DNA of 27,848 bases from a virus (Duplodnaviria; Heunggongvirae; Uroviricota; Caudoviricetes), in the IMG/VR virus record IMGVR_UViG_2579778666_000022, one strand, 5' to 3'. The stretch's first letter is position 1, and each line of letters opens with the position of its first letter. This document shows, one piece after another, positions 18,001 through 21,000 of the stretch. Made by a program: the position numbers.

Positions 18001-21000
18001 CAGATAACAAAAAACCCTGCCGGAGCAGGGTCAGAATGTGAATTGCAATTGGTTTACACACGATAATGAATACAGTGGCAGTCAGACCGCTATCCTGAAC
18101 ACCATGAAGCCATCCTCATCATCCGGCATTCGCTCAAAGCCCAGACGTTTTCCCAGCCGGATAAATCCTCGTCTTGCCGTATGAAATTCGGCCCAGCGTC
18201 CGCCAGCCAGGCGGGGTAATGTCTTCACCTCCGGCAGATAACGCTCAACACTCTTACTCCCCGTACACACGCCCAGTAACACCAGAACATAAGGGATACC
18301 ATCGTCACTGAGCACAGAACGCAGCACCAGAAAACCATCCGGCGCTTCAAAGCAAAACGCCTGCTTTTTAAGGCAGGCGTCTTTAACTTCATTCATAAAT
18401 TCAGGGTTGCGGGAATTTCTCACAACACGCTGCATATACCGGAGAATTTTGTCGTCCATTCTCTCACCAGAAACGGGTGCCATATCGGCTGAACCTCAGC
18501 AACCAGTTGACGGGGACTTTCGTCCCCGTCGCGGTTTTCCTACTGCTTACACTGTAAGAACGCCGCAAACTCCGCTCCCCACAAATTCAGCCGGAACTCA
18601 CACAACGAGCCGTGTAACATCCAGATGGTGAAGATTACCGTCATACAAATTGTGACGGTGATGAGCGATTTTTGCGACATAGCGCTTGCCTCCTGAGTGG
18701 AGAGGCGCTAACCTTCTACTTGCTTAAGGTATGATGGTTAGGGCCTCGGGTTAAACAAAATGTTTGACTCGGGGCCTTTCCACATCGGGCCTTCAGGTTC
18801 ACCTTCCAGCCATCAGCCGAAAGACACCCGCGCATAATCTACGATTTTTGCCCTGCACGGGCAACAAAAAACCCGCCATCACAGCGGGTTATGACATGTT
18901 GTCGGGTATTACTCAGAATTTCAGGCCAATGCCTGCAAATAAACCATCAGTTTTCCAGTCGCCAGAGCCTGAGCTTTCATAAGTGACGTCCATAGTAACA
19001 CTTTCATTGAAGTTAAATTGCGCGCCGACAGACCATGCAATAGACGTTTTTTTGGTGCTGTTACTTTCAGAAAAACTACCTACACCACCATTAAGATTGT
19101 CGTTAACTTTCAAATCATAAGTTACTTTTGCAACCGCAACACCTGCCATTGAATACACACTGAGGTATTCATTAAACCGCCACGAAGGACCGGATAGTAG
19201 ACTCCAGTAATTAGCCCTGATATCAGTTCTCGCTGAAGCTGCCGGTTTTTTTACCTCTCGTGATGGATCGGAAGGCTTAACATCAATGAATGCCTGTGCA
19301 TTAGTCATGGATCGAGCCCATGCAAAAGAGGTTATAACACCGATCTCATCCGTAATCTCATAACGATACTTAATGTTCATTCCCAAGGGACTTTTCTCTT
19401 TACCATCATGGCCCCGGACAAACGCATCGTCATATTCTCCAGGTGAATTGAAATAGTTTTCATTCACAAAATTGTTAAAGGTATCAAGGTTATGAAGACT
19501 TAAATCCTTAACAAAATTATTCAGTCCGGATAGCTGAAGGTGAGCGAATCCAAGGGATACGGTACTATCACCAGATGCAGCATGTGCCTGTGCAGTTAAT
19601 CCACCTAAGCCCAGAGTTGCGCACACAAGAAATTTTGTGATACTTTTCATTTTAAGAATCTTCCTATATTAAAAACATTATTCTCTCTGTCCTTTCCACA
19701 TTTTTGATTATTTACCATCCTGCCTGGAAATAAAAAATAAAAATTTTTCTTAAAATGATTGATAAATTTTATTGTGCTAATCATACATTGAAGTATTAAT
19801 AACAAGAACTTTGTCTACATAAGGCTTTCGAATATCCCATGTTGCACCACCTGAATAATGCTCACAGGAATATATTTTATTTCCTGTAGCACCAGTGGAT
19901 GTGGTGTAAATCGGTCGGTCATAAGGTGTTCGTTTCCAGTTATAATATCCAACCAGTGCAGGCATAATTGCGCATGGATATCCAAGGTCCTTCTCAAACT
20001 TGATATCAACTGGTATTAACTTCGCGTCAAGCAGCATCATTTCGCCATGGTAAATCATCTCACCCGACGGGTTATACATGGCGATACCATACTCAGAAGG
20101 TTGAGTAACCATATTCGCAAAAGCATAAACAGTCGTAACACCGGGATTCGTTCCCCTGACAATTTGATGAAGCCTTAAGGCATGATATCCATCAATTTGT
20201 TCATGCGTGTACATAACATCGGCCTTTTTCTCTGTTCTGATAAAGAAAAAACAACTTTTTCCTGACGGGATTGACGTTTTAAAAAAAGCCTTCTCAGTCG
20301 CCGGAATAGTTCCCTTATTGATCAGACACTGAGGCGTAAACCCCGGGCTTATCCACAAGCTGCCATCTGGTTTCGTAATGCTTAAACCATACATACAACT
20401 CACCCCCAGAATGTATAAATATATGACCCCATCCCCTGCTCAAGATTCGACCATGTCACCGTATTGCCATTAATGGTTATCTTCGGTACTTTCCGGTCCT
20501 TAAATACATTATTCCACGGAAATAATGAACAGACTGCCTGTAATGTTTTCCCTTCTGGTTTATTCGTATACGTTTTTGATCCCGACTCCGCCGTAAACCT
20601 GTCCAGGAAAAATATGGGAGTAAGCACGCCCGTAACATTAACATTATTTCTGTTGTATATTGCAAAACCATATTCTGCCAATGTCAGCCTCCGGCTCAGC
20701 TTAACCTGCCTATGCGAACAGCCAGGCGTCCGTTCTGGTCATAAACTTCAATTTTATCATTGCGGATCACCAGCCCCACATTCTGATTAGAGTAACGAAT
20801 TGTCAGTTGCCCCTGCGACGTAACACTAAAAAGGCCACCAATATTCAGGTTACCCTGAGAATCAACCTGAAAGTTTCCGTTCTGAATAACGGCACTCCGG
20901 ATAACTGGCGAAGTGATACTTACCCCGGCTTTTACCTCATCCGCCACAACCTTCCGCGACACCAGTGTTTCAATCACCGCGTCATAAATCATCGCTTTGG

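Follow-up and report, generated by a model that had tools for sequence, protein, structure and literature searches.

The locus described here raises the question whether a short Hok-like gene of a phage stands alone or belongs to a complete, regulated system. It lies in IMG/VR virus record IMGVR_UViG_2579778666_000022 (Caudoviricetes). The whole analysed stretch of 27,848 nucleotides is called the window; positions are those of the window unless another record is named, and (+) is the presented strand. A preliminary description of this DNA had noted a 46-residue Hok-family peptide on the minus strand and raised the possibility that the toxin is unregulated or decayed, or that its control differs. 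That suggestion now appears mostly unsupported, as all RNA elements of a hok/sok system save mok can be predicted and the coding sequence bears the marks of purifying selection. We consider it probable that the locus forms a complete type I toxin-antitoxin cassette of the hok/sok type. It would be a self-contained moron of a 933W-like prophage, set between lom and the downstream virion genes, and it is a second such locus beside hokW-sokW.

The toxin open reading frame (ORF) runs from 18680 to 18540 (-). Its 141-nt coding sequence (CDS) encodes the 46-residue peptide MSQKSLITVTICMTVIFTIWMLHGSLCEFRLNLWGAEFAAFLQCKQ, which contains SLCEFR and EFAAFL. The family assignment made in the preliminary description agrees with the ORF list, Pfam, and PHROG. 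Residues 8-44 fit positions 6-42 of the 42 of Pfam PF01848 (HOK_GEF) with 33.2 bits (E=4e-8; gathering score 22), and the match to PHROG 251 (MokW-like host killing; E=2.8e-24) is full-length. The hydrophobic stretch LITVTICMTVIFTIWML corresponds to the N-terminal transmembrane helix of the Hok family. The conserved positions of the family logo are M1, C16, T18, L30, C31, E32, and E41 (numbering of bioRxiv 10.1101/2025.08.07.668861). In an alignment, C12, T14, L26, C27, E28, and E37 of the peptide line up with HokW, Hok of R1, and HokC; the Hok R1 and HokC strings used for this comparison agree with Table S2 of the same preprint. The best curated NCBIfam model is that of HokA of Escherichia coli K-12 (NF007290, E=9e-10), yet the score of 38.4 bits stays below the equivalog cut-off of 89, and the Hok subfamily model NF007279 is not reached either (22.7 vs 73). 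By these profile scores, we regard the peptide as a separate Hok subfamily and not as a HokA equivalog.

For comparison, 52 distinct homologous cassettes from E. coli genomes, Salmonella, E. albertii, and IMG/VR were aligned. A profile search of contigs gave six loci only, three of them probably contaminant, and the diversity of the comparison was taken from IMG/VR. The three (L011, L012, and L014) stand on contigs assigned to Xanthomonas pisi (857 bp), a Planococcaceae metagenome-assembled genome (MAG), and Vagococcus sp., and as members of this enterobacterial subfamily they most likely stem from E. coli or Salmonella DNA in those assemblies. The ORF is intact at 46 codons in 50 of the 52 cassettes. 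The ratio of non-synonymous to synonymous changes per site (pN/pS) of the homologous peptides, relative to the window copy, is 0-0.49. The window and 933W copies differ by seven synonymous and no non-synonymous changes and encode the same 46-residue peptide. This pattern argues for purifying selection on the Hok-family CDS. The reading of the ORF as a chance frame within an intergenic spacer could appeal to its 46 codons and to its omission from the 933W and VT2-Sakai reference records. Against it stand the selection pattern, the Pfam, PHROG, and Rfam matches, and the cataloguing of the peptide as a Hok; among 5426 complete E. coli genomes, 1550 have a match to the cassette DNA, and a Hok/Gef annotation stands in each of the 20 rows sampled from that search. 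We count the chance frame as already refuted by profiles and conservation and give it next to no probability. As judged from the sequence, the minus strand encodes a genuine gene for a Hok-family inner-membrane toxin.

The gene itself is already known, as it is annotated, catalogued, and listed in the toxicity-test set of a 2026 preprint. RefSeq 'Hok/Gef family protein' WP_000078907.1, found in one relative (L006), is 100% identical to the window peptide. Phage Lyz12581Vzw, with 99.3% identical DNA, has the same 141-nt CDS labelled 'Hok/Gef family protein' or 'MokW-like host killing'. All inspected records have the CDS annotated other than the RefSeq records of 933W and VT2-Sakai, in which a 429-bp gap after lom is unannotated (NC_000924, 45428-45856; NC_000902, 44469-44897). 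The gap is identical in both records and holds the complete cassette with the same 46-residue Hok ORF (44701-44841 in VT2-Sakai). Fozo et al. 2010 had counted 14 Hok/Gef genes in O157:H7 Sakai. The catalogue of Escalera-Maurer et al. (bioRxiv 10.1101/2025.08.07.668861) comprises 1264 Hok peptides; the authors found them enriched in prophages and saw two hok copies in 3.5% of hok-bearing phages. The exact window peptide is entry 72_1589 of cluster 72, listed in the tested set of Table S2 with plasmid LRP157 and a 'cluster abundance' of HAC. The preprint gives 42 of 45 tested homologues as toxic; 72_1589 is neither among the three named as non-toxic nor on the list of five entries that were not cloned.

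The limits of the cassette are marked by its recurrence in three phage contexts. In Sepvirinae, the subfamily sits between lom and a p67-like gene; in P2-like prophages, it stands at their end and adjoins ogr; in a Mu-like element, it adjoins com/mom. Similarity starts at the hok promoter and ends right after GGCACCC (18475), 65 nt past the stop codon, where the alignable sequences diverge directly and the flanks are unrelated between the contexts. The segment from promoter to GGCACCC recurs as a mobile unit in three unrelated phage contexts.

Within this unit, the putative hok promoter proposed earlier lies at 18864-18836 (-), with -35 TTGCCC and -10 TAGATT separated by 17 nt. A -35 of the form TTGnnn and a -10 of the form TAnnnT (TAGATT, TAAATT, TAGAAT, TACATT) recur at this position in the three contexts. 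We infer a transcription start near G18829, which agrees with the leader of about 150 nt suggested before and is where the Rfam sok/hok-leader model begins to align. RF01794 aligns to 18829-18669 (-) over its full model (1-157) with 34.1 bits (E=7.5e-6). As a positive control, the hokW locus of 933W gives 113.5 bits on the hok strand (L003, 28611-28785 (-)). RF01794, which is named 'sok antitoxin', in fact models the hok-sense leader strand and not the antisense RNA, and strand calls made with it need to be read as hok-sense. With the conservation limit as its 3' end, the predicted full-length hok mRNA has about 360 nt (18829-18470 (-)). The Shine-Dalgarno (SD) sequence AGGAGG, noted in the preliminary description as the ribosome-binding site, is located at 18694-18689, 8 nt ahead of the AUG. 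A local pairing of this sequence with CUCUC (18701-18697) is possible, and the resulting hairpin appears in both the full-length and the Sok-masked folds.

A correction to the preliminary description concerns the antitoxin, for which no obvious antisense promoter had been found. A candidate promoter of a Sok-like RNA is present at 18686-18714 (+), with -35 TTGCCT (18686-18691), a 17-nt spacer, and -10 TAACCT (18709-18714). In the locus alignment, both hexamers and their spacing are identical to those upstream of the annotated sokW of 933W. TAACCT occurs in 51 of 52 distinct homologues, whose -35 reads TTGCTC, TTGCCT, TTGACT, or TTGTCT. At hokW-sokW, toxicity appeared when the sokW promoter was mutated, growth was partly regained when a second plasmid provided sokW, and Northern blots showed the sokW RNA (PMC8621323). 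The predicted Sok-like RNA downstream of the candidate promoter would span about 61 nt (18721-18781 (+)) and end at 18781 with GGGGCCUUUCC. It has a single-stranded 5' tail of about 15 nt, a long hairpin, and then UUUCC (-28.1 kcal/mol), and this layout is the same as that of the 71-nt sokW. In 30 distinct versions, variation is greatest in the 5' tail and nil at the base of the hairpin. Such a variable tail would limit cross-talk between paralogous modules.

The preliminary description had proposed folding the leader for fbi-, tac-, and ucb-like elements, and all three can be placed. The 360-nt RNA (18829-18470) folds at a minimum free energy (MFE) of -154 kcal/mol with its ends paired. A tac-like element at the 5' end, GGGUGUCUUUCGGCUG (18829-18814 (-)), is complementary to an fbi-like element at the 3' end, CAGCCGAUAUGGCACCC (18491-18475 (-)), which closes the conserved cassette. 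Thirteen pairs, in which 5' GGGUGUC and UCGGCUG meet CAGCCGA and GGCACCC, join 18829-18815 with 18491-18475 in the MFE structure as well as in the RNAalifold consensus (39-51 sequences). These pairs are kept in 37-39 of 39 sequences. The changes seen in the fbi pairs are one-sided and wobble-preserving only (GC in 26 and GU in 12 sequences; UG in 20 and UA in 19). The window has a C to U change at tac position 6, which retains both tac-fbi and tac-ucb pairing as G-U.

When the RNA is truncated after the GC-rich stem-loop discussed below, tac is predicted to re-pair with GGAAAGGCCCC (18783-18771 (-)), the equivalent of ucb and the alternative partner of tac (GUGGAAAGGCCCC). The truncated RNA is also predicted to form a sokT-like hairpin (18747-18702 (-)) with the arms GAGGCCCUAACC and GGUUAGCGCCUC; the 5' tail of the Sok-like RNA is complementary to its 22-nt loop. 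Across 39 sequences, 98.9% of the tac-ucb cells and 97% of the sokT cells are paired. Over the predicted tac-ucb and sokT pairings of the truncated RNA, 93.5% of the cells are paired vs 26-58% in slid controls.

The GC-rich hairpin past the stop codon, GACGGGGACGAAAGUCCCCGUC (18530-18509 (-)), is where the preliminary description had placed it, and it is found by the scan and in the folds. Two of its apical pairs show compensatory changes (AU in 23 and GC in 16 sequences; AU in 18, CG in 17, and GC in 3), and such changes are limited to these apical pairs and a few others. Its reading as the end of the transcript did not hold, for the conserved cassette extends about 35 nt beyond it to the fbi element. 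By analogy with plasmid R1, in which mutations in the terminal stem abolish the truncated hok mRNA (PMC9841398), the stem-loop is best read as the protective 3' hairpin of a processed, truncated hok mRNA and not as a terminator.

Some further observations concern these elements. On the plus strand, 18508-18531 holds the same GC stem-loop followed by CGGTTTTCCT and was scored as terminator-like; it could stop transcription arriving from the virion genes. The annotated start of the downstream 133-residue ORF (-), ATG 18483, lies inside the hok fbi element. PHROG 610 aligns to this ORF from residue 9 only, and its true start is probably ATG 18459 (MDDKIL...). The terminator scan gave no intrinsic terminator between the hok cassette and this ORF. 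In one relative (L068, 1051-1410), tac reads GGACACC and is mismatched to its unchanged fbi. In another (L010, 1517-2809), an insertion sequence with an integrase-core transposase replaces the entire hok leader, leaving no promoter and no Sok.

Several points weigh against the reading as a complete cassette. A simple consensus promoter scan picked up neither the hok nor the Sok-like promoter, and we base both on homology and conservation, not on consensus strength. Both ends of the hok mRNA and of the Sok-like RNA are predictions. The RF01794 match stays below the gathering score (34.1 vs 59). The U tract of the Sok-like terminator is weak, with three U only, and the scan found no intrinsic terminator 3' of fbi in this context. 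For the tac-ucb and sokT pairs, covariation is 0.063 vs 0.060 in shuffles. The pairs are near-invariant, those of tac-ucb barely vary, and covariation is essentially absent because the sequences are too similar. The evidence for structure is conserved complementarity, not covariation.

Part of this evidence would also suit a toxin without a cognate antitoxin, controlled by mRNA folding or by late transcription of the phage, with the plus-strand 'promoter' being a mere complement of the leader structure. TAACCT is the complement of GGUUAG in the 3' arm of sokT, and the -35 partly covers the strand opposite the hok SD region; structure could account for the conservation of both. The sub-threshold promoter score and the weak terminator fit this account as well. 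However, the same hexamers at the same spacing precede sokW, where the promoter mutations, partial rescue in trans, and Northern blots support function. The predicted RNA has the canonical tail, hairpin, and U-tail, and an unopposed Hok made from a constitutive promoter would kill lysogens. We regard a toxin without antitoxin as very improbable.

A further difficulty for the complete cassette is the absence of mok. In plasmid R1, translation of mok up to the hok SD is required for translation of hok (PMC9841398). As the preliminary description had stated, no mok-like frame is present in the window: no ATG, GTG, or TTG frame begun inside the predicted mRNA enters the hok start. No leader ORF with one of these start codons comes within 25 nt of the hok AUG in the window or in 32 of the 52 relatives, and the remaining relatives have leader ORFs with inconsistent starts. 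R1 and hokW have the mok start at the position of the sokT hairpin, where the window locus has none; in the alignment to the hokW locus, the mokW start ATGCTGAACACATGT is replaced by ATACCTTAAGCAAGTAGA. The folds add to the difficulty. The hok AUG is paired with downstream coding sequence in all modelled conformers, and the predicted SD accessibility in partition-function folds changes only from 0.18 to 0.26, with masking of the Sok target taking it from 0.26 back to 0.18. The MFE structures switch as expected when the Sok target is masked.

We considered a conserved upstream AUG at 18785, which opens a short upstream ORF (MWKGP...), as a displaced mok and rejected it. Among relatives, this ORF ends anywhere between -100 and +137 relative to the hok AUG, and it has only a poor SD. 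The AUG overlaps the ucb-like element, and its conservation is better explained by the overlap with ucb and the 3' end of Sok.

The absence of mok would be expected if the locus were a translationally silent remnant, in which mok was lost, the hok start is never opened, and the cassette hitch-hikes. The dependence of R1 hok on mok, the lack of leader frames reaching the hok start region in the window and in 32 of 52 relatives, the pairing of the AUG and most of the SD in every modelled conformer, and the existence of decayed copies (L010 with its insertion sequence and L068 with its mismatched tac) all speak for such a remnant. A remnant would hardly account for the strong purifying selection seen against the 933W copy (seven synonymous vs zero non-synonymous changes), the intact ORF length in 50 of 52 cassettes, or the retention of the SD, both promoters, tac, ucb, and fbi across three phage lineages. 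The AGGAGG is also strong and optimally spaced. We judge a silent remnant unlikely, although less so than a toxin without antitoxin.

With the complete cassette as the preferred reading, the lack of a mok leader ORF suggests that hok is probably initiated directly at the strong AGGAGG, and we hold this mok-independent initiation to be the likeliest reading. The segment GGUUAGCGCCUCUCC (about 18713-18699) can pair with either the upstream arm or the SD region; that Sok binding may re-sequester the hok SD is a hypothesis only. Tentatively, the widespread, phage-borne cluster-72 subfamily could be naturally mok-less, with direct initiation at the SD, with Sok acting by decay set off by the duplex and by freeing GGUUAGCGCCUCUCC to re-sequester the SD and not by blockage of a leader ORF, and with this second locus masking the phenotype of hokW-sokW deletion. 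We hold this wider proposal to be possible but somewhat doubtful.

The mechanism that we propose for the complete cassette comes from homology with R1 hok/sok and from folding. The mRNA of about 360 nt would be made from its own promoter and kept inactive by pairing of the 5' tac (18829-18814) with the 3' fbi (18491-18475). Once the 3' end has been slowly trimmed to the GC stem-loop (18530-18509), tac would re-pair with ucb (18783-18771), and the sokT hairpin would then form, with its loop exposed to the 5' tail of the Sok-like RNA of about 61 nt (18721-18781 (+)). On binding, the duplex would be destroyed, as RNase III destroys the hok/Sok duplex in R1 and in hokW-sokW. Once the decay of Sok outpaces its synthesis, Hok would be translated and the membrane depolarised. 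By analogy with what was shown for hokW-sokW, the likeliest biological role would be in prophage retention or help with lysis timing.

Close known systems include hokW-sokW and R1. The possibility that the locus is hokW itself was rejected, as the HokW primer sequence is absent from the window, peptide identity is about 35%, and 933W carries both loci separately, the lom-adjacent gap at 45428-45856 and hokW-mokW-sokW at 58460-58734 (NC_000924). The hokW-mokW-sokW system (933W and Sakai prophage 5, Takada et al. 2021, PMC8621323) belongs to the same phage group, and both 933W and VT2-Sakai carry it together with the lom-adjacent locus. The two systems share a Hok-family toxin with a cis-antisense RNA, predicted for the window locus, in its leader, TTGCCT-17-TAACCT, the Sok architecture, and a GGGUGC... 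5' end. They differ in position, as hokW is near attR and the window locus follows lom. HokW has 51 residues vs 46 here, mokW is an in-frame 70-residue extension with no counterpart in the window, and RF01794 gives 113.5 bits vs 34. The RNAs of the window locus are predictions from sequence.

With R1 hok/mok/sok, the locus shares the closure of the full-length mRNA by tac and fbi, a fold-back that is a feature of the hok family (summarised in PMC9841398), the predicted re-pairing of tac with ucb after 3' trimming, the GC-rich terminal stem-loop, a predicted target hairpin whose loop would meet the 5' tail of Sok, and a Sok promoter overlapping the complement of the hok SD region. Peptide identity is about 30%, and the locus is phage-borne where R1 is a plasmid. 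Its processing, RNase III cleavage, and killing would follow R1 by analogy; experiments on 3' exonucleolytic activation, duplex cleavage, and killing upon loss of the antitoxin exist for R1 and, in part, for hokW-sokW. The translational coupling of R1 cannot operate here, as there is no mok ORF.

The window covers the late genes and one terminal part of a short-tailed prophage of the Shiga toxin (Stx) type that resembles 933W (Sepvirinae). Over a 601-bp region, it shows 99.3-99.8% identity with phages GER2 and Lyz12581Vzw as well as with a large number of Stx2a-converting phages. The placement of the locus as a moron between lom and the virion genes, given in the preliminary description, stands: the upstream gene is lom (Pfam Ail_Lom, 105 bits), and the cassette is self-contained. 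An intrinsic terminator of lom, AACCCGCTGTGATGGCGGGTT followed by a T run (18890-18866 (-)), was found by the terminator scan with its coordinates checked, and is predicted to insulate the hok cassette from lom transcription. Only the Sepvirinae copies retain it, and the mobile cassette does not include it.

The window begins within a molybdopterin-oxidoreductase gene of the host (1-2397 (+)), recognised by the Pfam domains Molybdopterin, Molydop_binding, and Fe4S4. From about 2509 on, the DNA is homologous to phage PhiR5_2, which places the prophage end and attachment site between 2397 and about 2509. The Rfam family sRNA-Xcc1 (RF02221) occurs twice, at 2808-2896 and 3345-3430 (+), with 69.1 and 73.4 bits against a gathering score of 53. 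Each copy is at the 5' side of an AntA-type antirepressor ORF (2937-3221 and 3309-4100), and the second falls inside the longest call of ORF 3309-4100. In EDL933, sRNA-Xcc1 was reported about 2.4 kb from the sok_6 entry with about 40,000 RNA sequencing reads (PMC5331693). Further on, a 3'-phosphoadenosine-5'-phosphosulfate (PAPS) reductase/DUF3440 gene (IbrA, 4297-5523) and a 214-residue ORF (IbrB, 5508-6152) form an IbrA/IbrB pair, and 6241-6765 (-) holds a SocA/Panacea-domain ORF (PanA-like antitoxin) without an obvious partner toxin. The block 4297-6765 occupies the place where 933W has ygiW and hokW/mokW/sokW, so that in the window the hokW-holding block of 933W is replaced by the PanA-like gene and ibrAB.

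We searched the literature for work on the lom-adjacent locus, on its Sok RNA and phage role, and on hok subfamilies lacking mok, and found nothing specific. The preprint of Escalera-Maurer et al. covers coding sequences only and deliberately leaves Sok, mok, and mRNA structure aside, and the regulatory anatomy of the locus is absent from it. The only non-routine features of the cassette are the absence of mok, common to most relatives, the sub-threshold Rfam score, and the omission from reference annotation. The last two have practical consequences. The 933W and VT2-Sakai reference records miss the gene and the Rfam sok model misses the locus, so that Rfam-based small-RNA surveys of enterohaemorrhagic E. 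coli overlook the Sok-like RNA. Surveys such as PMC5331693 are without this locus because the RF01794 match is below the gathering score.

The presence of two modules also bears on the biology of these prophages. Two Hok modules are present in each of 933W and Sp5, and the lom-adjacent one was still in place in the published hokW-sokW deletion. This bears on how the deletion phenotypes are read: that the published one is partial may be due to masking by the second locus. For the hok family, the mok-less subfamily would offer a natural experiment, convenient for asking whether hok regulation can do without coupling to a leader ORF.

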